Shown here piece by piece: positions 2,105 to 35,668 of a stretch of 62,486 bases of DNA. The stretch lies in assembly GCA_036653755.1 (NCBI GenBank), contig JAVVTJ010000002.1:1-62486 (forward strand). Reading direction: 5' to 3'. A program made the position numbers and the translations under genes. The stretch is from Clostridia bacterium (GTDB lineage Bacteria; Bacillota; Clostridia; TANB77; CAG-465). The number at the start of each line of letters is the position of its first letter. Position 1 is the stretch's first letter. The notes beneath the pieces were generated by a model, which had not been told where the DNA came from, made no database searches, and saw nothing but the letters and a program-made list of their open reading frames with translations.

Positions 2105-2125
2105 TTTTATTTTCCTCACTTTCAT

Positions 2126-2270: not shown

Positions 2271-2277
2271 TATATAT

Positions 2278-2306
2278 ATTATAACATACATTTTTTTGCT
2301 TGTCAA
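2278..2306 (-). promoter_or_regulatory. Perfect consensus sigma-A promoter driving the endolysin leader
   Basis: On the minus strand: TTGACA (2306-2301), 17-nt spacer, TATAAT (2283-2278). Confidence 0.6.
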
Positions 2307-2307
2307 A

Positions 2308-2676
2308 TTATTTTTTAATTTCTATAAAATATCCATATTTTTCGTACTTTTCAATTTTTTCTTTTGCCATAACATACATCGTTCTGACAAAGTATTTTCC
2401 TTTTCCACTAGTTCTTACTACTACTAAAACCATTTCATTATATAATACGTACCTTTTTATATATTCTATTGAATTTTTACCCTCGTTTCTAGCAAGATAT
2501 GTCGGATTATTTATTATATCGCTAATTTTATTTCCATATTTATTATAATCTTCTAAATGATTAATTTTCATATGTTCTATATTTGCATCCCCAATTAAAA
2601 TAGGAATGTTTTCTTCAATATCCATTTTCAAAGTATCGATTACTTCCTTAGATATTGTAGCTATTTTTTTATTCAT
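2308..2676 (-). CDS. Small putative nuclease-toxin-like protein (PBECR-type pattern)
   Basis: 122 aa. IEHMKINHLEDY ... PTYLARN ... VLVVVRTSGKGKYFVRTMYVM resembles phage Barnase-EndoU-ColicinE5/D-RelE-like small nuclease domains (recalled from memory only). Confidence 0.35.
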   Translation of the reverse strand: MNKKIATISKEVIDTLKMDIEENIPILIGDANIEHMKINHLEDYNKYGNKISDIINNPTYLARNEGKNSIEYIKRYVLYNEMVLVVVRTSGKGKYFVRTMYVMAKEKIEKYEKYGYFIEIKK

Positions 2677-2735
2677 ATTATTATCTCCTGACTATAAATA
2701 TATTATACTACTAAACACTATACTTTTCAACTATT

Positions 2736-2903
2736 TTACTTATCCATTTCTTCAATTGTAGTTATCAAATCATGTATTTCATAATAAATAGTTCTATCTA
2801 AATTATTTTTAAATATATATCTGTCATGTTTAATACTTTTCTGATAAATTATTAGAATTTTAACTATATTTTTTATTATCCATTTGTTTATTATTTTAGC
2901 CAT
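2736..2903 (-). CDS. Hypothetical 55-aa protein
   Basis: Not in the ORF track (<60 aa). ATG 2903 behind GGAGGT, 55 codons, TAA at 2736-2738. Directly upstream of the 122-aa gene. Confidence 0.4.
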   Translation of the reverse strand: MAKIINKWIIKNIVKILIIYQKSIKHDRYIFKNNLDRTIYYEIHDLITTIEEMDK

Positions 2904-2957
2904 AAAGGTGACCTCCTACAAGCTATTTTAAGGCTTTTATATTTACAAGTAATGTGT

Positions 2958-3149
2958 TTACTTGTCCATCTTTTCTGCTTTAGTAAAATAATACGTAATT
3001 ATTGCAGATGTTATAGTCATAAACGCTACTACATCAATTACACCTTTGTATGTTAAAATACAAGTTGTAATAATTACGCTTAAACTTAATATTGTTTTTA
3101 CTTTAAATAAATTAGCAATATTTTCACCTATTTTTTTTAATACTTCCAT
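2958..3149 (-). CDS. Putative holin
   Basis: 63 aa, two hydrophobic segments, charged C-terminus, located in the lysis cassette. Confidence 0.5.
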   Translation of the reverse strand: MEVLKKIGENIANLFKVKTILSLSVIITTCILTYKGVIDVVAFMTITSAIITYYFTKAEKMDK

Positions 3150-3437
3150 TTATTTCACCCCCATTTTAAAATTAAGCTCTGATATACTTTTTTCTATATT
3201 TCCACAACGCTTGTCGTGTTCAACCATAAATTCTTGCTGATTATCCATACTTTTTTGTAATAATTCTAAAGACTTTGAAGTATTACTGTTTGTATTTTTC
3301 ATTTCTTCTAAAAATTTTGTATTTTGCTCTAAAGTATCTTTAATTTTATCTTTATTCTTAAACCAATCAAAAATAAACAAGCCTATTATTACAAAGCTTG
3401 TTCCATAATTCATTATCATTTTTACTATATCTTCCAT
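3150..3437 (-). CDS. BhlA/UviB-family holin-like protein
   Basis: 95 aa. Single N-terminal TM (FVIIGLFIFDWF) followed by KNKDK and a coiled coil, as in BhlA/UviB peptides. Confidence 0.5.
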   Translation of the reverse strand: MEDIVKMIMNYGTSFVIIGLFIFDWFKNKDKIKDTLEQNTKFLEEMKNTNSNTSKSLELLQKSMDNQQEFMVEHDKRCGNIEKSISELNFKMGVK

Positions 3438-3449
3438 TTATACACCCCC

Positions 3450-6400: not shown

Positions 6401-9400
6401 ATTCGTTCATATTCTCAGTTAAATCTTTTACTTTATCATAATGCTCAGCTTTAACATCTTTTCTGAATTTTTCAATTGCTTTTTGTGTTTCTCTTAGAGG
6501 CTTAGAAACTTCGTATACATTAAGTATACCTTTTACATTAGGCTTATCTTTTTTATTTTTAAGTTCCTCCACTGTTAAACTGCCATTTTCTAAAGCTTTT
6601 AAATATTTATTATCAACATCTGTTAAAACTTCTTTAGCCATTACTTTATCATGCTGTTTTTGATATTCATTAGCCATTTTAAATACTTCTTTTACATCTT
6701 CTACTTCTTCTATCTTTTTCTTTTCTTTTTCAGTTTTTGCCTCTTTATACCTATCAGCAAGTTTCACGTCATTTTCAAGTTCATATACTAAATTATCAAA
6801 ATCATTTTTAGCAAATTTTTTATATTCCGGTCCCATAACTATGTCGTTATATTCATTTAAGTTTCTTTCACTAAGTAATATATCTTCTTTAACTTTAGAC
6901 ATTCTAATTAACTGATCTGCTTCATTGTCAATTTTAGATGAAAACAAACCAGGATATACTTCACTAAGCTCTTGATATTTTACATCAATTTTAGTTGCGT
7001 TCATATCGCTGGTTGTTCTTATTTTTATATTGTCCACATCTGATTTAATATTTGTAGGTAAGTATACCTTTGTAGTTTTTAAATCATTAAACAAGTCTTT
7101 ATACTCATTGTAGTATGTTTTATCTACTATTTTTAAATCATTATATAACTTATTAAATAACTTAGTTTTACTTTCATCTGATAATGTACCGTTATTTCTT
7201 ATTTCTTCTTTTATTTCATTTACTGTATTATTTAATAATTCTTTATTTGAATATTTGCTAACTTGTAATTTATCAGTAAGGTTGGTTATAAATTGATTAG
7301 TTTTAGACTTTTCATAACGCTGATTTTTAGATAAAGTTTTAGCAGTATTTACTTCCTTCTTTAAATCTTTAATTTTATTACCTACATTTTCATTTTTATA
7401 TAATGTGTTTAGTCTATTATCCCATACAGTATTAGGTAAAGAAATAGAATTAGATTTTTCTAGTTCTACATGTCCTCTTCCTTCGCTCCCCAATCTGTTC
7501 CATGCTTGTCCTCGAATTTTTGTATTTTTTTGAAGTATCTCTCTGCCATTATTTTTCGTATTTTCCAATATATTTGTTTCAACATTCTCATAATTAACCC
7601 CATCCTTTTTATAATTATATCTTTTATCTTTAATTTTGTCAAATATATTTCTATTATTTAAATATTTTTGCAAATTCTTGTGTTCAGGATTATATTTTGA
7701 AGTTTCAGGAGGTGTGTTTGTTAAATTTTGATTCTTATATTTTTCTAATATGAACCTATCCTTAGTATCGGTGGCTTCAATTTCTCCTAAGCTTTCATAG
7801 TATCTTAGTTTACTTGCTTTGTTGCTTGCTCCACCTTCATAACCTTCTATTTTTTGGATAGCATGTTGTATTTCATGAATTAAGGTTCCTTCTGACTTAC
7901 TTTGAGTGTTTAATTTACTTACATCTAATTTAATTAAATCTGTAAATTTATTATAACTTCCATTAATTTTACTATTTTCAGTCATATGTACTTTATAATT
8001 AGCTAATTCTGGATATGCACTAAATAAAGTATCATGTTCTAATATATCGCCTAATTTATATGTCTTATTTTTTTCTAATTTAATATCTTTTTTTAGCTCC
8101 ATATCTTTATCAGAAAATTCAAATTTCCAGTCACCGTTTTTATCTTGGAACCAATTAGTTGATTGTCTTATAGTTTCATTATTAACACCTATACTTTTCA
8201 TATGTTGTGCATTTTCATATTGTTTCTCTAATTTACTATCATTTAAATTTTCCATTGCTTTTTTACCTGCAATAGAATATTTAGTATTATTTTGCATAGA
8301 ATATTTATCAGTAGTATTGACATCTGTATTTATAGGTGTTATACTATTATTATATAAAGAAGATGTGCGTGGTGATGCGATGAAGGATTTATCCGATGTA
8401 TTGTAGAACGGCATCTTCTTTATTTGTGTTATATCATATAATGTTTTCGTATCACCATGTTTTGCTATATTTATTAAACCTTCATATTTAAATCCATTTA
8501 CTTCAAATACTGTTTTATAATAATCCCAACCGTCTTTTGCAAATGAATGTCTTCCATCATCTTTTACACTATACTGATAATCTGATATATTTAATAAATT
8601 ATCTAATTCTGTACTTGCTTTCATTTTCATTTTTTTGTCAGGATTTTGTAACTCTGTTTTAGGATGTGTATATTCACTTGCTGTCTTGCTTGTTACATTT
8701 ATTTTTTCAGCTGTAGGCAATAGTAGAGGCTTATTACCATCTCTATAATTTTTTAATATATATTTTCTTGCTATATTAGTAAACTCTCTTGCAGTTTTAC
8801 CTTCAAAAATATCTTGGTCTGTATCAACTTTTACATATTTATTTCCATTACTATCTACTTGAATACTAAATTTATTTTGATTATTATTTATATTAGCATA
8901 ATCTTGTTTAAAACTGGTTTCAAATTTATTTTTTACATCTGACCAATATAGCTTTTCACTTTTATATCCAGTTAATTTATTAATTTTATTTAATTTATCT
9001 ATAACCCAATTATATACTTTTTGAGAAATTGTTTGGTCTTTAATAGTTAAATTATTTATAAACTCTTGATCACCTAATTTGCTACCTAATATATCTGCTA
9101 CTGCTTCATTATCTACTAATTCTTCGAATCCTATGCTTTCTTTATCGTATACTTGTGAATAAGCTTCTTCTAATGATTGTCTAGCTTCTAAATATCCACT
9201 TTTTTTAGAATCATAATCTTGTACAAGCTGTTTTAAAGTGTTATATTCATTAGTTCCCTCTAAGTCATGAGTTAATTCATGTACAGTTATATTCTCTAAT
9301 GTTTTATTAGTATCTGCATTTGGATTTAATATGACCTTTCTAGTTATATTACCATTTTCATCTGTATCTACTTTCCACATTGCATTAACATTGTTATTTT

Positions 9401-10643
9401 TAAACATATCTGCATTATATATAGTTTTAATTCCTCTTTCACCAGTTACTTTATCTATACATTTTACTGTTTCATTATTAGTATCTATATTATACTTTTT
9501 AGCACTTAATTTATAATCTGATGGATTTATTTCACTTATAATGTCTTGCATTAAAATATCATCTATTTTGTTTATATCATTTAATTTACTAATTAATTCT
9601 TGTTTATCTTTAACTTCTATATTACTATTAGTTATATTTTCAGCTAAAATATTTCTATTTATATTTGTTTTATCATCAGGCAATATATTTTTTGTTTCTG
9701 ATACTTTTTCACTTAATGTATCTAATATATTGTTACTTGTTTTATAAGTTTGTTTTACTTCTGCATTTGATTGGCTTTTATTGTTTTCTATTTTATTTGC
9801 TATATTTACAGTTTTGCTTAAACCCGCTGTCGCTCCACCCATTACTGCTGAAGTTAATGCTCCATCTACTCCAGATTGTAACATTCTTTGTGGCATGTTT
9901 TCCCAATCAGATTTCCCTAATATAGCTTGCGAAGCTATTTCGGTTGTTGGTTCCATTATTGCTTCTTGTATAACATTATCCATTGTGCTTATTCCAAATC
10001 TTTTTATACCAGCTCTAATACCACCCTTAGCTACTTCTTTAGCACCTTTTGATAATTGCCCTAAACCTATCATTTCAGTAAGCCCCTCAGCTGCCCCTAA
10101 TGTACTACCATATAATAACTTTTGTGTATCGTTTGCACCTTTTTGCTCTGCTTCTTCCATAGATTGTCCACCTGCATTAGCAAGTGATATAATAGCAGAA
10201 AGTACTGGACTTGATAAAGAAGTTACAGCAGTGGGCAACATTTGTCCAATACTTGTGCTTACTTCTGAAGCTTTTTTCATTACATCATTATTAATACTAT
10301 TACTTGCCCTCTGCTCTTGATTAGTTTTACTTTGAATTGTGCTTGATATATTTTTTTGAAAGTCATTCATCCAATTATTTATATCTTCATTTTTTAAAGT
10401 TTTTAAATATGGCTCAACTGTATCTGCTAGAAAATTAGTTATATTTAATCCACTTTTTATAAAACCAGTCCCTAAATTTTCATATATTTTACCAGCATCA
10501 TGAAAAAAATTGTTTTCAGATGTGGGTAAATATGTTGTTTTAGGAATATTATCATAAAAATTATATTCCTTACCATCAATTTTGCCTTCTCTTTGTAATC
10601 TAGCAATTTCATCTATTTTACCAGCTATATTTAATTTAGCCAT
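3450..10643 (-). CDS. Giant (2397-aa) polyvalent virion/ejection-type protein with two zincin-like motifs
   Basis: Single uninterrupted ORF. Gly/Ala-rich hydrophobic N-terminal region. HELTH (9267-9281) and HEIQH..EGYEGG (7863-7877). Long coiled-coil centre and hydrophobic C-terminal blocks. Confidence 0.6.
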   Translation of the reverse strand: MAKLNIAGKIDEIARLQREGKIDGKEYNFYDNIPKTTYLPTSENNFFHDAGKIYENLGTGFIKSGLNITNFLADTVEPYLKTLKNEDINNWMNDFQKNISSTIQSKTNQEQRASNSINNDVMKKASEVSTSIGQMLPTAVTSLSSPVLSAIISLANAGGQSMEEAEQKGANDTQKLLYGSTLGAAEGLTEMIGLGQLSKGAKEVAKGGIRAGIKRFGISTMDNVIQEAIMEPTTEIASQAILGKSDWENMPQRMLQSGVDGALTSAVMGGATAGLSKTVNIANKIENNKSQSNAEVKQTYKTSNNILDTLSEKVSETKNILPDDKTNINRNILAENITNSNIEVKDKQELISKLNDINKIDDILMQDIISEINPSDYKLSAKKYNIDTNNETVKCIDKVTGERGIKTIYNADMFKNNNVNAMWKVDTDENGNITRKVILNPNADTNKTLENITVHELTHDLEGTNEYNTLKQLVQDYDSKKSGYLEARQSLEEAYSQVYDKESIGFEELVDNEAVADILGSKLGDQEFINNLTIKDQTISQKVYNWVIDKLNKINKLTGYKSEKLYWSDVKNKFETSFKQDYANINNNQNKFSIQVDSNGNKYVKVDTDQDIFEGKTAREFTNIARKYILKNYRDGNKPLLLPTAEKINVTSKTASEYTHPKTELQNPDKKMKMKASTELDNLLNISDYQYSVKDDGRHSFAKDGWDYYKTVFEVNGFKYEGLINIAKHGDTKTLYDITQIKKMPFYNTSDKSFIASPRTSSLYNNSITPINTDVNTTDKYSMQNNTKYSIAGKKAMENLNDSKLEKQYENAQHMKSIGVNNETIRQSTNWFQDKNGDWKFEFSDKDMELKKDIKLEKNKTYKLGDILEHDTLFSAYPELANYKVHMTENSKINGSYNKFTDLIKLDVSKLNTQSKSEGTLIHEIQHAIQKIEGYEGGASNKASKLRYYESLGEIEATDTKDRFILEKYKNQNLTNTPPETSKYNPEHKNLQKYLNNRNIFDKIKDKRYNYKKDGVNYENVETNILENTKNNGREILQKNTKIRGQAWNRLGSEGRGHVELEKSNSISLPNTVWDNRLNTLYKNENVGNKIKDLKKEVNTAKTLSKNQRYEKSKTNQFITNLTDKLQVSKYSNKELLNNTVNEIKEEIRNNGTLSDESKTKLFNKLYNDLKIVDKTYYNEYKDLFNDLKTTKVYLPTNIKSDVDNIKIRTTSDMNATKIDVKYQELSEVYPGLFSSKIDNEADQLIRMSKVKEDILLSERNLNEYNDIVMGPEYKKFAKNDFDNLVYELENDVKLADRYKEAKTEKEKKKIEEVEDVKEVFKMANEYQKQHDKVMAKEVLTDVDNKYLKALENGSLTVEELKNKKDKPNVKGILNVYEVSKPLRETQKAIEKFRKDVKAEHYDKVKDLTENMNEWKDKKGLFAGFRLNRETFTRNIQDVVKDKKTADKINSVLYDKYSSNEAESTRIKNEIGNRIRDLGLDTKEKYVYDGNKINEYDIAQLYLEKKLDDGQVIDYGVNLNKIKEASNTYKEIFDDLCNKMSDTLVANGYAPVEYRKNYFPHFTENKPDTFLGKISSMVGIDTTYQELDTSIAGTTASRKPGKTWMGNLLQRTSDVTDYNALKSIDMYLQGSMDIIYHTDDIQRLRAFESTIRDSYLSEEMKKRIEEIKDNENISPEDKVEAIEKIHQTANNQLSHFVTWIREYTNVLAGKKSSADRQFEYELGRNIYITAQNLESRFAANAVGGNLSVSLTNIAPLIQATGTTGYGNVLKGMLKTMTSSISHDDSFINNSDFLTKRRGTDKLYKTTVNKLSEIASKPFQIIDDFVSESIVRAKYDENISNGMSEIDALTNADKYTANLMADRSKGALPVTFNSKNPIAKVINMFQVEVNNTLSNYTKDMKIDAKTKTQLVQNYTKLFAGTFVFNTLIKSIRGGNDVLPDPIHWVMDVINYLFGDDEEKEKSMQSLGNNIVGAIPFSNIAGLVGMEDIGRLPTASMLPNVIKIAGSFDKDVSEEYRNETLIKEMSKPLTYIFLPFGGSQLKKTIDGISAVIEGGSYKTNKKGEKQLQFAIEDANLGTYAQAGILGKYSLPTAKKYVDDGFNLLTAKETKIYKEANVPFEEFSKYTNASKRKNSDKINILNKMKIDDSQKWNIYIMDIFNDKIREEDKRSQVMDAEYALKNNKISKKEYMELYTKVNKNNSSMPDKKELDKLLENNVEIKDYVTYKIDTSQNKMPSEKDSNGKTIKNTRKVKIIDYLLSSDIPANSKAYLYSKEFADTTPIINCKIPVNEYLKLQKNIAFLVGDEDKKSIFEDKKLKNSLKRKVMKEIVKLDLTPQQKILLTYLSGYSIEDNDYKGVSKNSARKNSFKYIDGLNISKIKKEKILKVAEYKKLKNGKWSW

Positions 10644-26311: not shown

Positions 26312-27412
26312 CTATTTTATTATTTTAATATTTCTGCCTAATTCTTTACAAACTTCTTCTAGTGTCATTTCTTCTGCTTTTTCTTTTCTAAAATATTCAA
26401 TATATTCTTTTAAATAATAGCTTTTTAATTTTGCAATTGATTCATAATAGTTTTTTACAAATTGTAAAGCGTATCCGTTTTGTTTAACCGCTTCTAAACA
26501 TATCTCTTCTGTTTGTTCTTCTACAAATTGTAAAGCGTATCCATCTTGTTTAACCGCTTCTAAACACATCTCTTCAGTTTGCTTTTCTACATATCGTAAA
26601 GCGTATCCATTTTGTTTAGCCGCTGCTAAACATATCTCTTCTGTTTGTTCTTCTACAAATTCTAAAGCGTCACCATCTTGTTTAACTGCTTCTAAACAGA
26701 TTGCTTCTATTTGCTCTTCTACAAATTGTAAAGCGTATCCTTCTTGTTTAACCGCTTCTAAACAGATTGATTCTGTTTGCTTTTCTACATATTGTAAAGC
26801 GTATCCAGTTTGTTTAACCGCTTCTAAACAGATTGATTCTGTTTGTTTTTTTACATATCGTAAAGCATTTCCATCTTCTTTAACCGCTTCTAAACAGATT
26901 GCTTCTGTTTGCTCTTCTACAAATTGTAAAACGTATCCATCTGTTTTAACCGCTTCTAAACAGATTGCTTCTGTTTGCTTTTCTACATATTGTAAAGCGT
27001 ATCCGTTTTGTTTAACCGCTTCTAAACATATCTCTTCTGTTTGTTCTTCTACAAATTGTAAAGCGTATCCATCTTGTTTAACCGCTGTTAAACACATCTC
27101 TTCTGTTTGTTCTTCTACAAATTCTAAAGCGTCACCATCTTGCTTTACAGCTTCTAAACAGATTGATTCTGTTTGTTTTTTTACATATCGTAAAACGTAT
27201 CCATTTTGTTTAACCGCTTCTAAACAGATTGCTTCTGTTTGCTTTTCTACATATTGTAAAGCGTATCCGTTTTGTTTAACCGCTTCTAAACAGATTGCTT
27301 CTGTTTGCTCTTCTACAAATTGTAAAGCATTTCCATATTCTTTTACTGCTGCTAAATATTTTTCTTCACTTAACTTTTCAAATTTATTCATATTATTTTC
27401 TTCTTTATTCAT
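26312..27412 (-). CDS. DUF4116-type repeat protein (14 x 22 aa)
   Basis: Unit QTE.ICLEAVKQ.GYALQ(Y/F)VE. counted 14 times in the translation. Confidence 0.65.
   Translation of the reverse strand: MNKEENNMNKFEKLSEEKYLAAVKEYGNALQFVEEQTEAICLEAVKQNGYALQYVEKQTEAICLEAVKQNGYVLRYVKKQTESICLEAVKQDGDALEFVEEQTEEMCLTAVKQDGYALQFVEEQTEEICLEAVKQNGYALQYVEKQTEAICLEAVKTDGYVLQFVEEQTEAICLEAVKEDGNALRYVKKQTESICLEAVKQTGYALQYVEKQTESICLEAVKQEGYALQFVEEQIEAICLEAVKQDGDALEFVEEQTEEICLAAAKQNGYALRYVEKQTEEMCLEAVKQDGYALQFVEEQTEEICLEAVKQNGYALQFVKNYYESIAKLKSYYLKEYIEYFRKEKAEEMTLEEVCKELGRNIKIIK
26437..27364 (-). repeat. 66-bp tandem coding repeats (about 14 copies)
   Basis: Near-identical units such as ttctacaaattgtaaagcgtatcc..tgtttaaccgcttctaaaca recur every 66 nt. 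Confidence 0.85.
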
Positions 27413-27435
27413 ACTATTTTCTCCTCCATATTTTT

Positions 27436-27774
27436 TTATATTTTTTGCATAGTTTCTACATTATACGCTTTTCCATCAAATCTATCTTTTGACTTAAATA
27501 TTCTACAATCTCTTTTATTCTGATAAACGCCATCTGATACTTCTATAAATTCGTCATCATTTAAAGTTAATTTAGTTAAATTTTGTTGTCGTAATACTTT
27601 CATTATCAAGTCTATTTCATATTCTGCTGACATTCCACTATGCCAGATTTCACAAAATTTTCTAACAATTTCTAATACATTATTGTTTATTATTTTTTGC
27701 ATATTTATTGCTTCTTTGTCTTTTCCACATTCTTTAATTAATAAATCTAATTCATACTTTGTTTTTTCTATCAT
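27436..27774 (-). CDS. Hypothetical early protein
   Basis: 112-aa ORF. No motif recognised. Confidence 0.3.
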   Translation of the reverse strand: MIEKTKYELDLLIKECGKDKEAINMQKIINNNVLEIVRKFCEIWHSGMSAEYEIDLIMKVLRQQNLTKLTLNDDEFIEVSDGVYQNKRDCRIFKSKDRFDGKAYNVETMQKI

Positions 27775-28558: not shown

Positions 28559-29278
28559 CTACCTCTTTTTATAAAAATCATTTATAAGCATGGTTGTCAT
28601 ATAGCTTACTTCATTTCCTACATTTTTACCTTTCATTTTTTCATATGCTAACGTTAAATTATCTAGTGTTATATTATTTAAAACATCAATTACGTTGTTT
28701 TTATTTAGTTCTGCAATTACATTTTCAAATAGTTTTAATTGATTTTGAGCAAATTCATTTAAACCAGTTGTTTTAAAAATTCCAATTCGGCTACATATAT
28801 TATTTAATATATCATCCTCTTCTTCTAAGTCTAGGTCTGTATGTTCGTGAGATTTCTCCGGAGATTTCTCCAAAGGTATCAGTAGAGCCTTTTCAGTGGC
28901 TATTCTTCTATCTAATTTTCGTCTTCGGTCAGCTTCAGTTGAAGATTTTCCTATATAGTTTTCTATGTCTAACATAAATATAGCTCCATTATCTAATTTT
29001 TCTATAATACCCATATTAATAAATATTTCTATCGCAACTCTTACAACATCTTTATTATGTCTTGTAAGTTTTGCTATCATTTCTACACTATACGGTATTC
29101 TATCTTTATACATTAATTTTCCTTTATCCTTTAAACTCTTCAAGTAAAGTTTAAGGAGTATGTTGGAATATAAATAACCATTTTCCATACTCTCTAAAAT
29201 AACCATATCATCTGTGTCAAAAAAATTTTCTTTTAACATCAAATAAAAATATCTGCCTTTCACTTCTTCTTTATCCAT
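28559..29278 (-). CDS. Phage replisome organiser (DnaD-like N-terminal domain)
   Basis: YFYLMLKENFFDTDDM..LESMENGYLYSNILLKLYLKS..IPYSVEMIAKLT pattern of phage_rep_org_N proteins. Confidence 0.65.
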   Translation of the reverse strand: MDKEEVKGRYFYLMLKENFFDTDDMVILESMENGYLYSNILLKLYLKSLKDKGKLMYKDRIPYSVEMIAKLTRHNKDVVRVAIEIFINMGIIEKLDNGAIFMLDIENYIGKSSTEADRRRKLDRRIATEKALLIPLEKSPEKSHEHTDLDLEEEDDILNNICSRIGIFKTTGLNEFAQNQLKLFENVIAELNKNNVIDVLNNITLDNLTLAYEKMKGKNVGNEVSYMTTMLINDFYKKR

Positions 29279-29582
29279 ATATCTTCGCCTCTTTACTTAA
29301 ATATTTATTTATAAAGTATATCTGTCCTTTTCCAGTGACTTTTGTAGTAGTAGTTACTCTTACACTTTCATTTACTATTGTACTTACTTGTTTTCTTCCT
29401 AATGTATCCTCGACTTCAGTAATACTTAAGTCATCTAAATCTACCCTTTTTAATGTTTCGGTTATATTTGTTAAATTTAATATTTTACATATATCGTTAG
29501 TTACAAAATATATTTCATTTTCTTTATTAATTATTCTTATTTTTCCAAATTCTTTGTTTTCAAATATTTTTAAATTATTCAT
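29271..29582 (-). CDS. Bro-N-type antirepressor-like protein (short)
   Basis: LKIFENKEFGKIRII..EIYFVTNDICKILNL N-terminus. The C-terminus TKVTGKGQIYF resembles the end of KilAC/ANT domains, so the middle appears to be missing. Confidence 0.5.
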   Translation of the reverse strand: MNNLKIFENKEFGKIRIINKENEIYFVTNDICKILNLTNITETLKRVDLDDLSITEVEDTLGRKQVSTIVNESVRVTTTTKVTGKGQIYFINKYLSKEAKIYG

Positions 29583-29587
29583 TTTTT

Positions 29588-29620
29588 TATATCCTCCTCT
29601 TAACTTAATTTTTATCTATT
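29588..29620. repeat. ~33-bp leader repeat flanking antisense cassette A (partner 30061-30093)
   Basis: tatatcc(tcct/ccc)cttaactt(a/g)attttt(a/g)t(c/t)tatt. On the minus strand each copy is the RBS leader of an ORF. Confidence 0.6.
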
Positions 29621-29666
29621 ATTATGTTTATTTTTAAATTACTAATTATTTATCATCTTATTTTAA

Positions 29667-29695
29667 TTGAAATATTTATAAATTTATGTTATAAT
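29667..29695 (+). promoter_or_regulatory. Rightward (antisense) promoter A
   Basis: TTGAAA, 17-nt spacer, TATAAT with TGT extension. Part of a ~58-bp block (29664-29721) repeated at 31281-31339. Confidence 0.6.
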
Positions 29696-29718
29696 CATCT
29701 AAAAGTGAGGTGATATTT

Positions 29719-29955
29719 ATGCTTGAAGCTGGATTTAGTTTTGAATGTTGTCAATGTGGGCATTCAGAACATGAATTAGGTTCTGAATACTGCGAATATT
29801 GCGGTTTAAAATTATCAAACTATTGTAGTAATGCAAAATGTGTTAAAAATTATGGTGCTGATGAACCAATGCAACTCTCTCAAGACGCTCGCTATTGTAA
29901 TATTTGTGGCGAAAAATCTACTCATTATGAACATTTAATTGAAAATGCTCTTTAA
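29719..29955 (+). CDS. Double zinc-ribbon small protein
   Basis: Start ATG 29719 behind GTGAGGTGA. CQCG..CEYCG..C..C..CNICG. ORF track 29710-29955. Confidence 0.5.
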   Translation: MLEAGFSFECCQCGHSEHELGSEYCEYCGLKLSNYCSNAKCVKNYGADEPMQLSQDARYCNICGEKSTHYEHLIENAL

Positions 29956-30058
29956 TATGTTTACCACAATATTTACAATAATTACCTGAATCATATTTAC
30001 CTGTATTCTCACAATACGGACAAGTAAATATGATTTTTTCTTTTTTATTATTTTCCAT
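29918..30058 (-). CDS. 46-aa zinc-ribbon protein
   Basis: Not in the ORF track. ATG 30058 behind GGGGGGA. CPYC..CKYCG. The 3' end overlaps the plus-strand ORF by 38 nt. Confidence 0.4.
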   Translation of the reverse strand: MENNKKEKIIFTCPYCENTGKYDSGNYCKYCGKHIKEHFQLNVHNE

Positions 30059-30150
30059 AATATATCCCCCCTTAACTTGATTTTTGTTTATTTATCTGAT
30101 ATAATAGTAATATAATATTTTGATAAATTTATTATTTAGAAACGTTATTT

Positions 30151-30378
30151 TTAAACGGTAGACGTTTCTATTTTTATGTCTGTTTTTAAATCTTCAATCA
30201 ACTCTGATGCTGTATTTAATAAATCTGTTAAACTGCCTTGAGTTGCCTCTTTATTTTGCATACAATTTAATACAAAAGCATTCCAACCTAATGTATGTAT
30301 CTGTTCTATTTTTTCTAATATGCTTATTTGAATATCAGTCACTTGCTCTTGTGTAAATACCTTCTCCATATTTTTCAC
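30151..30378 (-). CDS. Hypothetical early protein
   Basis: 75-aa ORF overlapping the upstream stop by 4 nt. Confidence 0.3.
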   Translation of the reverse strand: MKNMEKVFTQEQVTDIQISILEKIEQIHTLGWNAFVLNCMQNKEATQGSLTDLLNTASELIEDLKTDIKIETSTV

Positions 30379-30662
30379 TTCCTCTCTAAAATATTATTTT
30401 CTTTTAACACTAAATACATAGTACTTGCAATGCTGTGTACCTTTTGCTCATCATCGTTTAAATCGCTATATCCCAGTTTCTCTAATATTCCATGTAAAAT
30501 TTCATGTAATAAAACTTCATTTTTTAAATCTTGTGAAATATTTTTATCTAATTTAATTGTTTGATCACAATAATCTATCTCGCCCAATAATCTTTTAAAT
30601 TTATCTATTTGTTCAACTTCTTGAATTTCATATTCTGTTGCCATTATTTTAATTTTTTCCAT
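30375..30662 (-). CDS. Mini HExxH (zincin-like) protein
   Basis: 95 aa with LLHEILHGILE. Confidence 0.4.
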   Translation of the reverse strand: MEKIKIMATEYEIQEVEQIDKFKRLLGEIDYCDQTIKLDKNISQDLKNEVLLHEILHGILEKLGYSDLNDDEQKVHSIASTMYLVLKENNILERK

Positions 30663-30668
30663 TTTTAT

Positions 30669-30953
30669 TCATCTCCTCACTTTCAATACCTGTCCTACTT
30701 CTAAACTGCTACTTTTTAAATTGTTTTCTTTTTTAATCTCAAAAATTGCCTCATTTAAATACGTGTCTGTATAATACTTATTAGCTATCTTTGTTAAGTT
30801 ATCTCCTTGTTGTACAGTATAAGTCCTGTAGCTTGTTTCTATTGGCTTGTCCTGTTTACTTGCAATATTTATCAAACTACATATTGCAATTATTAAAAGC
30901 AATAATACGAAGCATACTAGACTTACTATTTCACTATATCTTTTGTTTCTCAT
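30669..30953 (-). CDS. Membrane-anchored LysM protein
   Basis: N-terminal TM plus LysM (YTVQQGDNLTKIANKYY..LEVGQVLKV). Confidence 0.6.
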   Translation of the reverse strand: MRNKRYSEIVSLVCFVLLLLIIAICSLINIASKQDKPIETSYRTYTVQQGDNLTKIANKYYTDTYLNEAIFEIKKENNLKSSSLEVGQVLKVRR

Positions 30954-31252
30954 TTAACCACCTCTTTTATAAATAAACTATTTACTTTGCTTTTAATTGC
31001 ATTTTCTAAAATATCTCTTAACATTTCATTATCAATTTGCAAATTTTCTATTTTTCTGTTTTGCAACCAACACATAAGCGAATGTTTTTCTATTAAATTT
31101 GTATTAGGTATTTTAGGGAAGTCTGCTCTATGAAACCAAGCGTCTACTGTACTTCTTCCAAAACCGAATTTCATTACTTCTTTTATACCAAGTGTTAAGG
31201 ATACATCTTCCCAATTTTTAAATTGACATTCAGGTAATTTCATTTTTATCAC
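30950..31252 (-). CDS. Hypothetical DNA-binding-like early protein
   Basis: 100 aa. GIKEVMKFGFGRSTVDAWF looks HTH-like. Confidence 0.3.
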   Translation of the reverse strand: MIKMKLPECQFKNWEDVSLTLGIKEVMKFGFGRSTVDAWFHRADFPKIPNTNLIEKHSLMCWLQNRKIENLQIDNEMLRDILENAIKSKVNSLFIKEVVK

Positions 31253-31254
31253 TT

Positions 31255-31282
31255 CCTTTCATATACATTTTGATAATTCTTT
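31255..31282. repeat. 28-bp leader repeat flanking antisense cassette B (partner 31633-31660)
   Basis: cctttcatatacattttgataattcttt is identical at both sites. Confidence 0.8.
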
Positions 31283-31283
31283 A

Positions 31284-31312
31284 TTGAAATATTTGTAAAA
31301 TTATGTTATAAT
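31284..31312 (+). promoter_or_regulatory. Rightward (antisense) promoter B
   Basis: TTGAAA (31284-31289), 17-nt spacer, TATAAT (31307-31312) with TGT extension. Paralogue of promoter A. Confidence 0.6.
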
Positions 31313-31336
31313 TACCTCAAAAGTGAGGTGATTATT

Positions 31337-31513
31337 ATGTCAATCTGTCCTTTTATGTCTAAGCCTGATAATATACATTCAAATATAAACACTTTATGTC
31401 CTTGTATAAATTCCTGCGAACTTTACACAGGTAACGAATGTTCTTTTAAACTTATAGCAAAATCAGAATATCAATTAGCAAAACTTCTTTCTAAAGACAA
31501 TAAAAATAATTAA
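31337..31513 (+). CDS. Cys-rich small protein
   Basis: Start ATG 31337 behind GTGAGGTGA. MSICPF..LCPCINSC..C. ORF track 31328-31513. Confidence 0.45.
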   Translation: MSICPFMSKPDNIHSNINTLCPCINSCELYTGNECSFKLIAKSEYQLAKLLSKDNKNN

Positions 31514-31622
31514 TCATTTTTATAATATCAAGTGTCCTATCACTTGGTATTTTATTTTTTGCTTTACATTTTTCTAATTCATTTTTTACTATTGTTTCTA
31601 AACTCTTAATTATATCTTCCAT
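31491..31622 (-). CDS. 43-aa hypothetical protein
   Basis: Not in the ORF track. ATG 31622 behind AAAGGTGGTGA. The 3' end overlaps the plus-strand ORF by 23 nt. Confidence 0.35.
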   Translation of the reverse strand: MEDIIKSLETIVKNELEKCKAKNKIPSDRTLDIIKMINYFYCL

Positions 31623-31729
31623 TTTGTCACCACCTTTCATATACATTTTGATAATTCTTTTACTGCTTTTTCTAAATATGCTTTTCTTTACAGTTTTTAT
31701 AATTTATAAATATTCTAACTACATTAGAA

Positions 31730-31951
31730 TTATGTTTTAAAAAAAATAGATGTTTTTTCTTTAATTATTGAACATATATCTATTATTTCATCTGCTGTAA
31801 TAGGAATTTTTCCAGTTTCTTTTTTTGCATAAGTACTGGGAGATATCTTTCTTTTATATTGTTCTTTTAATATTTTAGACATATCATTAATTGATATATT
31901 CATTTTTTTTCTTTTAATTCTTACTTCAATATATTTTACTTCACTTTTCAT
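31730..31951 (-). CDS. Cro-like HTH regulator (first gene of the leftward early operon)
   Basis: 73 aa, HTH-like MSKILKEQYKRKISPSTYAKKETG, RBS AAGAGGTG, divergent from the XRE repressor. Confidence 0.5.
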   Translation of the reverse strand: MKSEVKYIEVRIKRKKMNISINDMSKILKEQYKRKISPSTYAKKETGKIPITADEIIDICSIIKEKTSIFFKT

Positions 31952-31970
31952 TTTTTTACACCTCTTTTCT

Positions 31971-32078
31971 ATTGATATTACAATTATATACTATTATTTT
32001 TGTAATGTCAATAGATTTTATTAATTTTTTTTTACATTTTTCTAATTGTAATACAATTATGTAAATTGTATTGACAAT
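31971..32078. promoter_or_regulatory. Four operator-like ATTG-N5/6-CAAT sites
   Basis: ATTGTAATATCAAT (minus strand, 31984-31971), TTTGTAATGTCAAT (31999-32012), ATTGTAATACAAT (32045-32057), ATTGTATTGACAAT (32065-32078). Sites 2 and 4 overlap the two -35 boxes. Confidence 0.5.
31983..32011 (-). promoter_or_regulatory. Leftward early promoter (perfect consensus)
   Basis: On the minus strand: TTGACA (32011-32006), 17-nt spacer, TATAAT (31988-31983). Confidence 0.65.
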
Positions 32079-32099
32079 ATAACTTGATAGTGATATAAT
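32071..32099 (+). promoter_or_regulatory. Rightward lysogeny promoter (perfect consensus)
   Basis: TTGACA (32071-32076), 17-nt spacer, TATAAT (32094-32099). Confidence 0.65.
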
Positions 32100-32130
32100 T
32101 ATCACATCAATAAAATTTTGGAGGATTTTT

Positions 32131-32472
32131 ATGACTTGTGGAGAAAAAATAAAATATTTAAGAAAAAAGTCTGATTTAACACAAACAGAACTAGCAAAAA
32201 AAGTAGGACTTCAATTTGGATCTATATCTAAATATGAAAAAGATGAAGTATCTATACCAGCTGACAATCTATCTAAAATAGCTGATATTTTTAATGTATC
32301 CACTGATTATCTTCTAGGTCGTACTGATAAACGTGAAAAAGACATTCTTGACCAGCCTTTACAAATTGCTGCATCTATGAAAGATAAAACAGCTGATTTG
32401 TCTAATTTATCAGAGGGTGATAAAGAAGTAGTTAGGCAAATGATAAGAAGTCTTAATGAAAAAAGAAAGTAG
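32131..32472 (+). CDS. XRE-family repressor (CI/ImmR-like)
   Basis: HTH_3 pattern IKYLRKKSDLTQTELAKKVGLQFGSISKYEKDE.. and STDYLLGR. Confidence 0.8.
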   Translation: MTCGEKIKYLRKKSDLTQTELAKKVGLQFGSISKYEKDEVSIPADNLSKIADIFNVSTDYLLGRTDKREKDILDQPLQIAASMKDKTADLSNLSEGDKEVVRQMIRSLNEKRK

Positions 32473-32480
32473 GCGGTTTT

Positions 32481-32894
32481 TTGTATATAGTTATTTTTGC
32501 AATAATTATTATTTGTTTATTTATATTCATAATTCTAAAAGGATATTTCAGTAATTGGAAAAGAACAGTCGATGCAGTATTATGCATATTAATTATTATT
32601 AGAGATAATAATAATAATAATAATATAGACCTTTTAACATATGATATTTTTTGCGAAGTGTTGGATAAAAAGTATAATGCTCTATTTACTGATAGAAAAG
32701 ATATTGTTAAAAATGAATATCTTTTAAATAATGAAAATAATGTTCCTTTACAATTGAATTATCTAATACTTTTATGCTTATTAATAGAAAACAACACAAT
32801 AATTCAAAAATATACAAACAACGAAATTAAATCTATAGATATATTTAATCTACTTAAATTAATAGATAAATATTTGTTAATAAAAGTACAATAA
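32481..32894 (+). CDS. Hypothetical membrane-anchored protein
   Basis: TTG start 9 nt after the repressor stop. N-terminal TM. An N6 run is encoded by an (ATA)n microsatellite near 32603-32625. Confidence 0.4.
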   Translation: MYIVIFAIIIICLFIFIILKGYFSNWKRTVDAVLCILIIIRDNNNNNNIDLLTYDIFCEVLDKKYNALFTDRKDIVKNEYLLNNENNVPLQLNYLILLCLLIENNTIIQKYTNNEIKSIDIFNLLKLIDKYLLIKVQ

Positions 32895-32966
32895 TTTTTG
32901 TATATCGGCAAAGTTCGACAAAATATTCTATAATTATATATTATACTTTAAAAAAGGAGTGATTTT

Positions 32967-33968
32967 ATGGACAAACATTTACCATTAAATTGGTTTAATT
33001 TTTATGTTTATTTTAGATTTCCTCTTGGCATAATATCTATATTAATATCTCTTGTATTTATTTGCACTAATTCAATATTATTTAGTATCAATACTGTTTT
33101 TTTAAATTTAATTTACTTATTAGTTATTTCTTTAACATATACATTAATGTTTAGAAAATCTATTAAGGGTTATTATTTTAATATTGCATTTTTACTAATA
33201 GAAACATTATATATTGTTTTAAATATAAATGTAAATATTTCTGAATATTTTTCTATGTTTTTTATATTCTTTATGATTTGGTTTTTACCAAATTATATTT
33301 ATTTTAAAAAAAGATTATATTTATTTTGTAATAATTCTAAAAATAATGAAAATCTCGAAGAAATAATTGACAAAAAGCATATAAATACTTCAGATACTGT
33401 ATATCCTCTGAAAATTGTTATACCATATATGATAATTTTTGCTATTCTTTTAATTGGTGGACTATTATTTTACTTTATTATAAATGAAAAAGATACAAAA
33501 ATATCAAATATTGAATCTAACATAGTACAACTAGAAAATAGTTTGAAAAATATAAAAATAGATAAACAAAATTTAAATAATGAACTATCTATTTTGTTTT
33601 AAAAAAACATTAATTATCAAAATGATTCTGATTTTTTAAAACAAAATATTGCCATATTACCTTGTAATAGTAATATTTTTCATAAATATGGTTCTAGTTG
33701 TTTAAATAATGTAAAAAGTTTTTATGCATATAATAATGAAACTGCTAAAGCAAAAGGATACGTAGCTTGTTCAATATGCTATTCCTCTAAATCAAAATTA
33801 GAGTTAGAATTACCTACTCAAACTGATATATCGTACACTGTATATATTACTAAAACTGGTACAAAATATCACAAAAATGGTTGTAGTTATTTAAAAAGTA
33901 AAATACCAATTGATAAAGAAGAGGCTATCGAAAAAGGGTATTCTTCTTGTAGTAGATGTAATCCATAA
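32967..33968 (+). pseudogene. Polytopic membrane / coiled-coil / double Cys-His motif protein interrupted by an in-frame TAA
   Basis: ORF 32967-33602 ends at TAA 33600-33602. The same frame stays open for 122 more codons with no ATG/GTG/TTG and encodes two (F/Y)H-K-x-G-x-x-C...GY..C..C motifs. Confidence 0.6.
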
Positions 33969-34026: not shown

Positions 34027-34479
34027 ATGTTTAGTAAAGAAGAGAATTGTATGTTAGATAAATTATATGAGATAGCAGAAAAAGAAAATATTAATATTTT
34101 TAGAGTCAAATTAGATGAACCTGAAGCTTTATATATGACTGATGGAGTCAATAGTGTTATAACTATTGATTCTAAAATAAAGGATGACTTAAATTTGGAG
34201 CGAATATTAAAACATGAACTTTCACATCATTCGGTTGGAGTATTTCCTACCAATATTTATTCACATGAATATTGTACTAGACTGTGCCACTCTAAAAACG
34301 AATTTAGAGCTGAAAAATGGTTAATTAATAAACTTATGCCATATAATGTGTTAAAGTCTTTAATTAAGCCAGATACATTTAAATATGAGGTAGCTGAAGA
34401 ATTAGAAGTAACTGAGGACTTTATTGAAAAAGCATATAATTTGTATAGAGATAAATTGAAAGGAGATTTTTATGTCTAA
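34027..34479 (+). CDS. ImmA/IrrE-family metallopeptidase
   Basis: LKHELSHH zincin motif in the usual ImmA context. Start moved to ATG 34027 because 33910-33968 belongs to the upstream frame. Overlaps int by 8 nt. Confidence 0.7.
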   Translation: MFSKEENCMLDKLYEIAEKENINIFRVKLDEPEALYMTDGVNSVITIDSKIKDDLNLERILKHELSHHSVGVFPTNIYSHEYCTRLCHSKNEFRAEKWLINKLMPYNVLKSLIKPDTFKYEVAEELEVTEDFIEKAYNLYRDKLKGDFYV

Positions 34480-35668
34480 AAAAAGAGGAAATGGTGAGGG
34501 GTCTATTTATTATTCCGAAACTTTAAAAAGATGGGTAGGACAATTTACAGCAGGAAGAAAAACAGATGGGACTATAAATAGAAAATCCGTGTATGGTAAA
34601 ACACGAAAAGAAGTAGCTGAAAAGATAAACAAATCAAATGTAGATATCAAAGAAGAGAAATTCGTGGATAAAAATGATATAACAATAGTTTATATATTAA
34701 AAGAAATTATTAACAATAAATATAATTTAAACAAAATATCTGATAGGACTTACATACGTTCTATGGAGACTGTAAAAATAATTGAAAAAAGTGATTTAAA
34801 TTTAATTCCAATACAAAAAATTACTGAGTATAATTTAACCAATTTTTTAGCGACATTAACTAATTATTCAAACTCAATTATAGATAAAGTATATTCATAT
34901 TTAGTACTGGCTTATAACAAAGCTTCGGTTTCGCAATTATTATATAACAATTTATTTTCAGATAAAAACTTAATCTTAAAACCAAAATCGTTGAAAAAGG
35001 ATAAGAATATAACTGCCTTAACAATTGAAGAACAGAAATTATTCTTAAATGAAGTTAAAAAATCTGAACATAAAAATGTATTCTTATTAGCTATTTACAC
35101 AGGAATGCGAATCGGAGAGATTTTAGCTTTACAAAAAAATGATATTGATTTAAAGAATAACCTAGTTCATATAAGTAGGACTTTAACAAAAGATAAACAA
35201 GATAAAGTTATAATAGGAGATACCACTAAAACATATGCAGGTATAAGAGATATTCCTATAAGAATTATAGTTAAAGACGTATTAAATGATGTTTTAGACA
35301 ATTATACAGACAATCAGTATAATTTACTATTTATAACAAAAAATAGTGATATTTGCACCCCTTGTTCTTTCAATAGTATTTTTAAAGAAATATGTAAAAA
35401 CGCACATATTAGAGAATCTATTTATCCATTAAAAAGAAAAGATAAAATAATTAATCTTAAAACTAGTAACGTTAATACACATATGCTAAGACATACATAT
35501 GCTACAAGATGTATTGAAGCAGGAATAAGTCCTGTTGTATTACAAAAGCTATTGGGACATAAAGACATTTCAACTACTTTAAATACCTACACATCTGTTT
35601 TCAATGAATTTAAAATTGATGAATTAAATAAAGTAGATTTATATATGAACAAAATCGGGTTGCATTAA
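34472..35668 (+). CDS. int: Tyrosine integrase
   Basis: GMRIGEILAL (Arg box), HMLRHTYATRCIEAG..LLGH..ISTTLNTYTSV catalytic region. Confidence 0.9.
   Translation: MSKKRGNGEGSIYYSETLKRWVGQFTAGRKTDGTINRKSVYGKTRKEVAEKINKSNVDIKEEKFVDKNDITIVYILKEIINNKYNLNKISDRTYIRSMETVKIIEKSDLNLIPIQKITEYNLTNFLATLTNYSNSIIDKVYSYLVLAYNKASVSQLLYNNLFSDKNLILKPKSLKKDKNITALTIEEQKLFLNEVKKSEHKNVFLLAIYTGMRIGEILALQKNDIDLKNNLVHISRTLTKDKQDKVIIGDTTKTYAGIRDIPIRIIVKDVLNDVLDNYTDNQYNLLFITKNSDICTPCSFNSIFKEICKNAHIRESIYPLKRKDKIINLKTSNVNTHMLRHTYATRCIEAGISPVVLQKLLGHKDISTTLNTYTSVFNEFKIDELNKVDLYMNKIGLH

Follow-up and report, generated by a model that had tools for sequence, protein, structure and literature searches.

The window analysed here is the whole of a 62,486-nucleotide (nt) stretch of DNA from a Clostridia bacterium (assembly GCA_036653755.1, contig JAVVTJ010000002.1), and the element in question is cassette B, a short unit within a prophage that spans about 1.4 kb to 35.7 kb of the window. 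The prophage carries all of its structural, replication and early genes on the minus strand; since its integrase and repressor genes are on the plus strand and its early operon is on the minus strand, the plus strand is the lysogenic direction. Cassette B lies one gene downstream of cro, antisense within the early lytic operon. Judged from its sequence, it combines a near-consensus sigma-A-type promoter, a very strong Shine-Dalgarno (SD) sequence, a gene for a small protein called Cys4, and an intrinsic terminator. The explanation towards which we lean, with some reserve, is that cassette B is a self-contained lysogenic-strand unit which is interlocked with a small early gene, X, and which antagonizes early lytic expression. 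The parts of the cassette and its convergent partner are as follows.

31284 to 31312, plus strand: predicted cassette B promoter, with -35 TTGAAA at 31284-31289, a 17-nt spacer, and the TG-extended -10 TGtTATAAT at 31304-31312.
31313 to 31332, plus strand: anti-SD/SD inverted repeat TACCTCA-AAAG-TGAGGTG(AT), a predicted RNA hairpin of -8.1 kcal/mol.
31337 to 31513, plus strand: open reading frame (ORF) B, the 58-amino-acid Cys4 small protein.
31524 to 31561, plus strand: predicted intrinsic terminator of cassette B, with an 11-bp stem, a 6-nt loop and a U-tract.
31491 to 31622, minus strand: early gene X, 43 amino acids, with the SD GGTGGTGA 4 nt before its ATG (31622); it is the first gene after cro.

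The SD of ORF B, GAGGTGAT, stands 4 nt ahead of its ATG, and ORF B and X overlap by 23 nt. Each feature reported in the first-pass annotation was recovered in the sequence and exceeds what chance would give. Because the terminator and the last Cys4 codons both lie inside the coding sequence of X, the two genes are interlocked. The terminator is not mentioned in the first-pass annotation, a short earlier note on this DNA. It starts 11 nt past the ORF B stop codon (31524-31551 plus the U-tract), is the sole terminator-like site in the 4.5-kb region from 28.5 to 33 kb, and is encoded within the X codons K-I-P-S-D-R-T-L-D-I, the U-tract corresponding to lysine codons in the Lys-rich loop of X.

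Comparison across loci is what makes this hairpin persuasive. In an alignment of nine loci, 99% of the cells of the 11-bp stem are paired, with compensatory changes at 4 pairs. Just 1 of 500 shuffles matched its covariation score or its paired fraction, and control stems slid along the alignment pair at 29-50%. The stem is coded by the most conserved codons of X, (I/V)PS...LD(I/T), and the stem changes alter X residues, turning IPS..LDI into VPS..LDT or MPN..LGI. Since the amino acids change along with the stem, RNA pairing has been kept at the expense of protein conservation. The stem is also strand-specific: a U.G pair found in 8 of the 9 sequences would be a C.A mismatch on the opposite strand, folding is predicted to yield -11.9, -12.9 and -14.3 kcal/mol for the plus strand versus -7.7, -6.6 and -8.5 kcal/mol for the minus strand, and the U-tract exists on the plus strand only. 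Altogether this points to a unidirectional intrinsic terminator, predicted to end the Cys4 mRNA about 50 nt past the stop codon while letting the lytic transcript pass. The predicted Cys4 transcript would start near 31319, end near 31560 and span 70 nt at the 3' end of X, an arrangement seen in nearly all loci. Rfam holds no family for the terminator hairpin or for the hairpin of the promoter block.

The protein was harder to place. A word-index search with ORF B returned only ORF B itself, and Pfam, PHROGs, NCBIfam and PADLOC gave no match. Run against 1.84 billion representatives, an exhaustive phmmer search turned up 7 relatives of 53-58 amino acids, and a profile built on the family then reached at least 30 members of 42-59 amino acids; a tblastn search with the Cys4 consensus gave nothing significant. 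The members share the motif CPF(M/L)S-x13-14-PC-x3-C-x-L-x5-C-(S/A)-x-K-x-(L/I)-A, followed by a variable polar tail. Within the motif P5, C27, L29, C35 and A41 never vary, and conservation of C4, S8, P22 and C23 is 90% or more. Across nine loci, the nonsynonymous proportion of differences (pN) was below the synonymous proportion (pS) in 36 of 36 pairs, and the pN/pS ratio was 0.57 in frame versus 1.04 and 1.14 in the other two frames, a pattern of purifying selection at the sequence level. The first-pass annotation had argued that the Cys-rich 58-residue ORF at 31337-31513 was not a chance reading frame, and family and selection agree with it. Because a cytoplasmic mini-protein of an anaerobe has four invariant or nearly invariant cysteines, metal binding (Zn or Fe-S) is suggested.

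The genomic contexts of the Cys4 gene were compared in 11 loci taken from gene tables and about 10 more from IMG/VR contigs and GTDB genomes, the latter being a Ruminococcaceae metagenome-assembled genome, a Ruminococcus sp. and the cultured Huintestinicola butyrica; all locus counts given here are lower bounds. In all contexts the Cys4 gene is on the strand of the repressor and integrase, inside the early operon of the opposite strand, and between one and six genes past cro. Its neighbour is in every case a convergent small early ORF, and the two overlap by 11-57 nt except at locus L088, where the Cys gene is truncated to 44 amino acids and a 6-nt gap separates it from its partner. The module stays constant although the integrases (tyrosine or serine type), the repressors (S24-type or short) and the replication modules differ. 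The sequence data thus describe the Cys4 gene and its small convergent early partner as a conserved two-gene module of Clostridia-type prophages, which was met beside the lysis/lysogeny switch in over 15 distinct contexts in prophages of gut Firmicutes. The homologous Cys4 genes at other loci also have TG-extended consensus promoters.

In nine low-GC loci the partner belongs to one family, X, of 40-46 amino acids, with the consensus MEEIxKxLxxIVxxxLxKCKxNKT(I/V)PSxxxLD(I/T)(I/V), and the L088 partner belongs to it as well. The Ruminococcaceae-group partner has 50-59 amino acids and a similar two-helix character (..LLWEHIxMLSxEAK..LDxLTxAICxxLLAL), and the partners in L011/L012 and in L014 are different again in appearance. 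The X frame is open for 40-46 codons in all nine loci, whereas the other two minus-strand frames contain 2-8 stops over the same span, and an SD precedes the X ATG by 6-9 nt in 9 of 9. The convergent ORF that the first-pass annotation had added at 31491-31622, with its 23-nt overlap, is therefore present, conserved and equipped with a strong SD in every locus examined. AlphaFold (AF2, single sequence) models X as a helix-loop-helix with a predicted local distance difference test score (pLDDT) of 94, in effect a generic helical hairpin, and neither family nor fold searches with X gave a match. X is part of the cro operon and has no separate promoter.

Two of these loci offer details of their own. 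In L024 (Huintestinicola butyrica Sanger_06, NZ_JAOQKB010000013.1), a cultured isolate, the whole arrangement lies at 2097-4400: a reverse gene for a 173-residue membrane protein, Cys4 (3001-3192), the convergent 59-residue partner, and genes for cro-like, cI-like and M78-like peptidase products, so this strain is a possible experimental system. In L007, the operator-like sequence TTAATTACTTTTGTAATTATT occurs twice, at 5313-5335 and 5567-5589, once in the cI-cro intergenic region and once between the cro stop codon and the X leader, and it may place a repressor site directly before X.

These observations are combined in a simple mechanism. The resident prophage would transcribe the Cys4 mRNA, which would end inside X. 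A lytic transcript running past cro and X would be complementary to the entire Cys4 mRNA of about 240 nt, and lytic polymerases would meet, head-on, the RNA polymerases coming from the near-consensus convergent promoter. Cys4 on one side, and X with the downstream early genes on the other, would then be mutually antagonistic through transcriptional interference and sense/antisense pairing, and leaky early expression of the next lytic-strand gene, Y, and of the replication genes downstream of it would be damped. After induction, strong lytic transcription over the cassette promoter would silence Cys4. In addition, Cys4 itself would have a role as a protein; that the pairing persists suggests that this protein may act on X or on the same decision.

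Several observations weigh against this picture. Promoter activity and the 3' end are predictions from sequence, and so is the lysogen-specific pattern. The conserved anti-SD arm of the block sits at about -5 to +1, where the transcription start would be expected; a transcript starting the usual 7 nt past the -10 would therefore lack it, so the arm may be outside the mRNA. The AlphaFold model of Cys4 has low confidence (pLDDT 65), with only the C-terminal helix confident, and neither Foldseek nor a profile search of the PDB at E up to 10 found a match for it; Cys4 and X alike have no match in Pfam, NCBIfam, PHROGs, PADLOC or PDB sequences and folds. The pN/pS of X is 0.82 in frame versus 0.64 and 0.90 out of frame, so that coding selection cannot be cleanly separated, as is expected because the RNA structure would constrain much of the gene. 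Finally, searches of INPHARED, IMG/VR and the metagenome collection brought up no near relative without the cassette.

The main rival is that Cys4 is a plain moron payload, a prophage-expressed accessory protein for defence, superinfection exclusion or host modulation that is not tied by regulation to X or the switch; the overlap and the embedded terminator would then be genome compaction, and the genes would travel together since the terminator is inside X. We regard this as a distinctly weaker but serious candidate. Most of what speaks for it comes from the promoter block, which is not particular to Cys4. Within the window it occurs a second time, at cassette A:

29666 to 29719, plus strand: cassette A promoter/SD block, TTGAAA-17-TGtTATAAT, CATCT-AAAAGT-GAGGTGAT.
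29720 to 29955, plus strand: ORF A, 78 amino acids, with a weak double zinc-ribbon signal.
29918 to 30058, minus strand: a 46-residue zinc-ribbon ORF convergent with ORF A, with a 38-nt overlap; it is the cassette A counterpart of X.

Compared from ATTGAAAT to the ATG, the A block (29666-29722) and the B block (31283-31339) agree in 49 of 56 columns (87.5%), and a single 1-nt indel separates them. Both promoters read TTGAAA-17-(TG)TATAAT and score 11/12, ranking in the 4.5-kb region next after the two 12/12 promoters of cI and cro. The blocks are alike even in the spacer between -35 and -10, and they are true paralogues. The first-pass annotation had noticed by eye that the cassette A block recurs at 31281-31339 at about 85% identity, close to the measured value, and had described the cassettes as paralogues of identical architecture. 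That description holds for the promoter block and for the convergent overlapping layout; the ORFs and the partners are not shared, and flanking repeats are at best borderline in cassette A. The word-index search with ORF A returned only the query, the 46-residue partner of ORF A is unrelated to X, and there is no clear plus-strand terminator 3' of ORF A. Both cassette A ORFs are zinc-ribbon-like and match the same PHROG, 19315, at positions of about 251-316, from opposite strands. An exact scan of IMG/VR for the core of the A/B promoter gave no match.

Control of both promoters by the repressor was also considered. The cI/cro operator palindrome has no copy at promoter A or promoter B, and repressor control, which thus has no support, was set aside; the lack of an operator copy is compatible with constitutive activity of the cassette B promoter.

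Beyond the window, almost every small gene on the plus strand (the lysogenic direction) of the loci retrieved has the SD AAAG(T/C)GAGGTG in front of it, and L003 and L010 have a second copy of the block, whose payload is a membrane protein of 118-121 amino acids. An exact scan of IMG/VR for TATAAT-NN-CCTC-N-AAAG-N-GAGGTG found it in at least 62 viral contigs and at least 38 distinct blocks. In 60 of these 62 a start codon comes a few bases further on, and the ORFs that follow the block form 14 unrelated payload clusters. By eye, most distinct blocks have a -35-like hexamer (TTGTAA, TTTACT) upstream of the -10, which often abuts the SD of a divergent gene. The commonest layout is one plus-strand gene between runs of minus-strand genes. 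One payload cluster (229-230 amino acids, zinc finger plus DUF4145) matches PD-T7-4 in PADLOC at 3e-15, and others contain DUF2513 or DUF2441, or consist of small membrane proteins. A text search of the literature for four exact variants of the block sequence found none of them.

The pairing within the block is itself well kept. The anti-SD arm always complements the SD, as CCTCA/TGAGG, CCTCG/CGAGG or CATCTC/GAGGTG; on the plus strand G.U pairs are allowed in it and A.C pairs are not. In the 38 blocks the loop-closing pair is G.T in 21, G-C in 14 and another in 3. In four Cys4 loci an insert of 35-45 nt separates the anti-SD from the SD; this insert in the 5' untranslated region of L010, L013, L016 and L021 is a conserved leader, ACTTAAGAGAAAAATATTT(A/T)A(G/A)TTT(A/G)TAG, and in L018 the long leader is present and the anti-SD is absent.

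The block also reaches Streptococcus. The Streptococcus agalactiae prophage Javan39 has TATAAT-CATCTC-GAAAG-GAGGTG-ATTATA-ATG before a gene for 102 amino acids, which is convergent with an early gene for 48 amino acids and overlaps it by 38 nt. Upstream of this block-driven gene (L101, 3441-3497) there is a second extended -10 promoter, TGTGATATAAT, followed by a classical terminator hairpin (GAGTCCGA...TCGGACTTTTTT), and the pair may yield a short RNA or act as an insulator before the cassette.

Taken together, the sequences describe the block as a portable promoter of "reverse cassettes", used by many Firmicutes prophages for varied payloads, defence included. The first-pass annotation had proposed one regulatory module with different payloads and an alignment of the block across prophages; the idea was right and reaches well beyond the genome of the window, as the block recurs before many unrelated payloads. 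The same finding favours a payload that is independent of the switch, as unrelated genes, among them the PD-T7-4-like defence gene and the small membrane proteins, are driven by the same block, and single reverse-oriented genes are frequent in such early regions. For Cys4, however, the convergent small partner and the closeness to cro persist across very different prophages, which exceeds what compaction would predict. The pairing spans from a GC of 25% to Ruminococcaceae levels and survives a change of partner family, and the other block payloads are not bound to one partner.

A more ambitious version of antagonism is that Cys4 and its partner form an accessory switch module of Clostridia prophages, in which a redox- or metal-sensitive Cys4, produced in the lysogen, antagonizes X, and the pair gates lytic commitment. 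Convergent transcription and the embedded terminator would provide mutual exclusion at the RNA level, induction would perhaps be coupled to the redox or metal status of anaerobes, and the -10 plus anti-SD/SD block would be the hallmark of an entire class of reverse cassettes expressed in lysogens. We think this unlikely.

The repeats that flank cassette B raise a different set of explanations, and involve the gene on its far side:

31239 to 31282, minus strand: leader repeat copy 1, made up of gene Y's leader, SD (GAAAGGAAGTGA) and ATG, and directly adjoining the cassette's -35.
31617 to 31660, minus strand: leader repeat copy 2, comprising the leader, SD and ATG of X, with the perfect core at 31633-31660.
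30950 to 31243, minus strand: early gene Y, 97 amino acids, ATG at 31243, the first lytic-strand gene downstream of the cassette.

The 28-mer CCTTTCATATACATTTTGATAATTCTTT is perfect at 31255-31282 and 31633-31660, is the only such pair in the window within 3 mismatches, and was matched in 0 of 100 shuffled sequences. The repeat extends to 44 nt at 89% identity (31239-31282 versus 31617-31660), and on the minus strand each copy reads AAAGAATTATCAAAATGTATATGAAAGG, then AAGTGATAAAAATG before gene Y or TGGTGACAAAATG before X. On the outer side the two copies cease to match at a sharp boundary (31283 and 31661); toward the genes their likeness fades gradually. The repeats show no palindromic character and have no antisense copy in the window; exact scans of IMG/VR for the 28-mer and of a metagenome collection for a 22-mer of the leader gave no match. 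Gene Y has no family match above threshold and no relative in IMG/VR.

For each locus, the 150 nt upstream of the block were compared with the 150 nt beyond the start of the partner. The window gave a strong repeat (score 29 versus a shuffle maximum of 14), and L007 gave a perfect 17-mer (17 versus 14) at equivalent positions, one copy abutting the -35 of the Cys promoter and the other in the X leader. L010 was marginal and six other loci had none. The leader similarity flanking cassette A is borderline, its best score of 16 being set against a shuffle maximum of 18, and for 44 block-driven cassettes of viral contigs the flanks share the SD/ATG region at most. In L007 the promoter-side copy precedes no gene, only a dead start, ATG-TGA, and it resembles a translation-initiation region that was duplicated and then decayed.

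The repeats are best read as a local recombination scar. Insertion of the X-Cys4 unit before gene Y would have duplicated the translation-initiation region, in a single homologous crossover between a circular or donor unit [leader-X-Cys4-promoter] of 378 bp and a similar leader before gene Y; this model fits the sharp outer end of the similarity and its gradual decay toward the genes. The candidate substrates for recombination are the 44-nt leader repeats, which bound the 378-bp unit, and the promoter blocks, which are 1,617 bp apart. Flanking repeats as a general property of such cassettes, similar to target-site duplications, were considered and rejected, as they are strong only in the window and L007 and are absent around other cassettes.

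The repeats may instead be functional cis elements, either a common translation-initiation or operator element through which X and Y are regulated together, or an antisense target. In the latter case plus-strand read-through RNA across copy 2 would be antisense to the start of X in cis and to the start of Y in trans, the same logic as that of the direct repeats in the pAD1 par locus. The perfect 28-nt core, equalled by no other repeat in the region, and the perfect 17-nt repeat at both equivalent positions of the independent prophage L007 fit this idea, which we nevertheless consider improbable. The repeats are missing at the other 7-8 Cys/X loci and around more than 40 cassettes with the same block, the promoter-side copy in L007 has no gene to regulate, the lack of palindromes and antisense copies fits poorly, and the strong terminator should make read-through rare. 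Of what the first-pass annotation said about these sequences, the perfect 28-bp repeats do form the leaders of minus-strand genes, Y and X, and since the window has only two copies they are not generic leaders; as a part of the cassette architecture they do not stand, being clear only in the window and, at 17 nt, in L007.

A type I toxin-antitoxin-like pair, in which one protein is toxic, the overlapping transcript of the other is the antisense antitoxin, and the prophage is thereby stabilized, would share with this locus convergent small genes, overlapping 3' ends, a hairpin in the overlap and an anti-SD beside the SD, a layout that is also found in type I systems of B. subtilis and E. faecalis prophages. 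Here there is no hydrophobic segment (maximum 15-residue Kyte-Doolittle windows of 0.57 and 0.64 versus 2.7 for Fst; grand averages of hydropathy of -0.34 and -0.23), both partners are conserved proteins and not a protein and an RNA, X is within the cro operon with no promoter of its own, and PADLOC and Pfam contain no toxin match. Hydropathy and the coding nature of both partners led to its rejection, and we hold it very improbable. That the cassette is made of chance ORFs beside a chance promoter-like sequence is hardly credible: AT-rich DNA does yield many such matches (49 promoter-like sites in the 4.5-kb region versus 38.5 expected), but comparative sequence data already contradict the idea, with a 30-protein Cys family under in-frame selection, conserved synteny, terminator covariation and a block directly before ORFs in 62 viral contigs.

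The remaining features place the cassette within its prophage, in a window with a G+C content of about 25%.

34472 to 35668, plus strand: tyrosine integrase.
32131 to 32472, plus strand: cI-like HTH_3 repressor gene; its promoter at 32071-32099 scores 12/12.
32043 to 32072: cI/cro operator palindromes, TAATTGTA-a-TACAATTA.
31730 to 31951, minus strand: Cro-like helix-turn-helix gene, the first in the lytic operon; its promoter at 32011-31983 (minus strand) scores 12/12.

The two promoters between the repressor and cro genes are thus perfect 12/12 matches and divergent. Two other public contigs are identical copies of the prophage, and there the gene callers annotated both ORF B and X. These copies aside, no close relative of the prophage was found in INPHARED, IMG/VR or the metagenome scan, and a blastn search of INPHARED with positions 29000-33000 gave matches restricted to the replication-organiser and repressor genes.

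Further observations were made in the same DNA. A direct similarity of 47 nt (72%) links 31533-31579 with 32001-32047 and contains the exact 17-mer TTTACATTTTTCTAATT, at 31563-31579 within X and at 32031-32047 in the cI-cro intergenic region beside the operator palindrome. Both copies score as weak plus-strand promoter-like sites (TTTACA-18-...), and the similarity may be chance or a duplication remnant. In the early region, at least 5 tandem copies of a 66-nt unit lie at 27000-27444, with 67-83% identity to the first copy, and give 22-residue repeats in a 366-residue ORF (26312-27412, minus strand) with no Pfam match. Next to it, the 112-residue protein at 27436-27774 (minus strand) has a precomputed Pfam match to PF25185 (Tad3), suggesting that one of the early genes serves anti-defence. 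The late region has a single ORF of 2,397 amino acids (3450-10643, minus strand), and the prophage has a P22-like portal. An Rfam "skipping-rope" RNA is found near the far end of the prophage at 2176-2252 (minus strand; 46.5 bits, above the gathering score), and the window also contains a tRNA-Arg(TCT) at 81-157 and a small signal recognition particle RNA at 60258-60354.

If antagonism between cassette B and the early genes is the right explanation, Cys4 and X would be two uncharacterised mini-protein families standing beside the cI/cro switch in many prophages of uncultivated gut Clostridia. They are easily missed, given that the word-index search was blank and no family library matched. The terminator within the partner gene would be a clean case of RNA-structure and coding constraints sharing one sequence, and would lock two convergent genes together. 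The block could serve as a sequence tag for mining lysogen-expressed accessory and defence genes. As the cultured Huintestinicola butyrica carries the module, an experimental host exists.

Cys4, X, their convergent interlock and the block are not in Pfam, PHROGs, NCBIfam, PADLOC or Rfam, and four kinds of known systems come close to parts of the arrangement. The PeSLs of T4-type phages are mobile regulatory cassettes in which a strong sigma-70-like promoter and a stem-loop precede variable, mostly ORFan genes (Arbiol et al. 2010, PMC2839356; Comeau et al. 2014, PMC4122927). Their stem-loop is a terminator, PeSLs stand on both sides of shuffled genes in lytic myoviruses (PMC2839356, PMC4122927), and mini-circles found in T4-type phages indicate recombination like the crossover proposed above (PMC2839356). 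Cassette B is similar in that a promoter and stem-loop motif is repeated within a genome and across phages before variable ORFans, and in that direct repeats flank a small unit which could recombine out, here as a 378-bp circle. It differs in having the block only 5' of the payload, with a stem-loop that contains the SD and lacks a U-tract, the terminator being a separate hairpin; its hosts are temperate Firmicutes phages, and recombination of the unit is here a model.

In the concept linked to Hendrix and Juhala, morons are said to be autonomous promoter-gene-terminator units between phage genes, with expression from the prophage. Cassette B, judged at the sequence level by its predicted promoter and terminator, is best read as a probable prophage-expressed unit of the moron type: it has a predicted strong promoter, a single small gene and a predicted intrinsic terminator of its own inside a phage operon, and sister cassettes on the same promoter carry defence-type payloads. 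It departs from the concept in being antisense to the surrounding operon with its terminator inside a neighbour's coding sequence, and in that the Cys4 unit is not sporadic but stays with a convergent partner near cro across diverse prophages.

Among Firmicutes prophages, the named type I toxin-antitoxin loci are txpA/RatA, bsrG/SR4 and par of pAD1. Convergent small units, 3' overlap, SD sequestration motifs and a prophage location are common to these and cassette B, which differs in lacking a hydrophobic toxin peptide, in having two conserved, soluble-looking partners, and in an X without a promoter.

Antisense control beside a switch is known from cII/oop of lambda and ant/sar of P22, and convergent transcription from pR and pL of coliphage 186. 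As in the first two, the cassette B promoter lies beyond an early gene near cro, fires toward the immunity region, and is predicted to give a short terminated transcript complementary to the 3' part of an early mRNA; as in phage 186, convergent transcription is predicted across the switch-proximal region. Unlike oop and sar, the cassette B transcript would encode a conserved protein, and X does not resemble CII or Ant. In lambda, oop and PRE lie downstream of cro and fire back toward cI, and it is to these that the cassette B promoter seems analogous in position.

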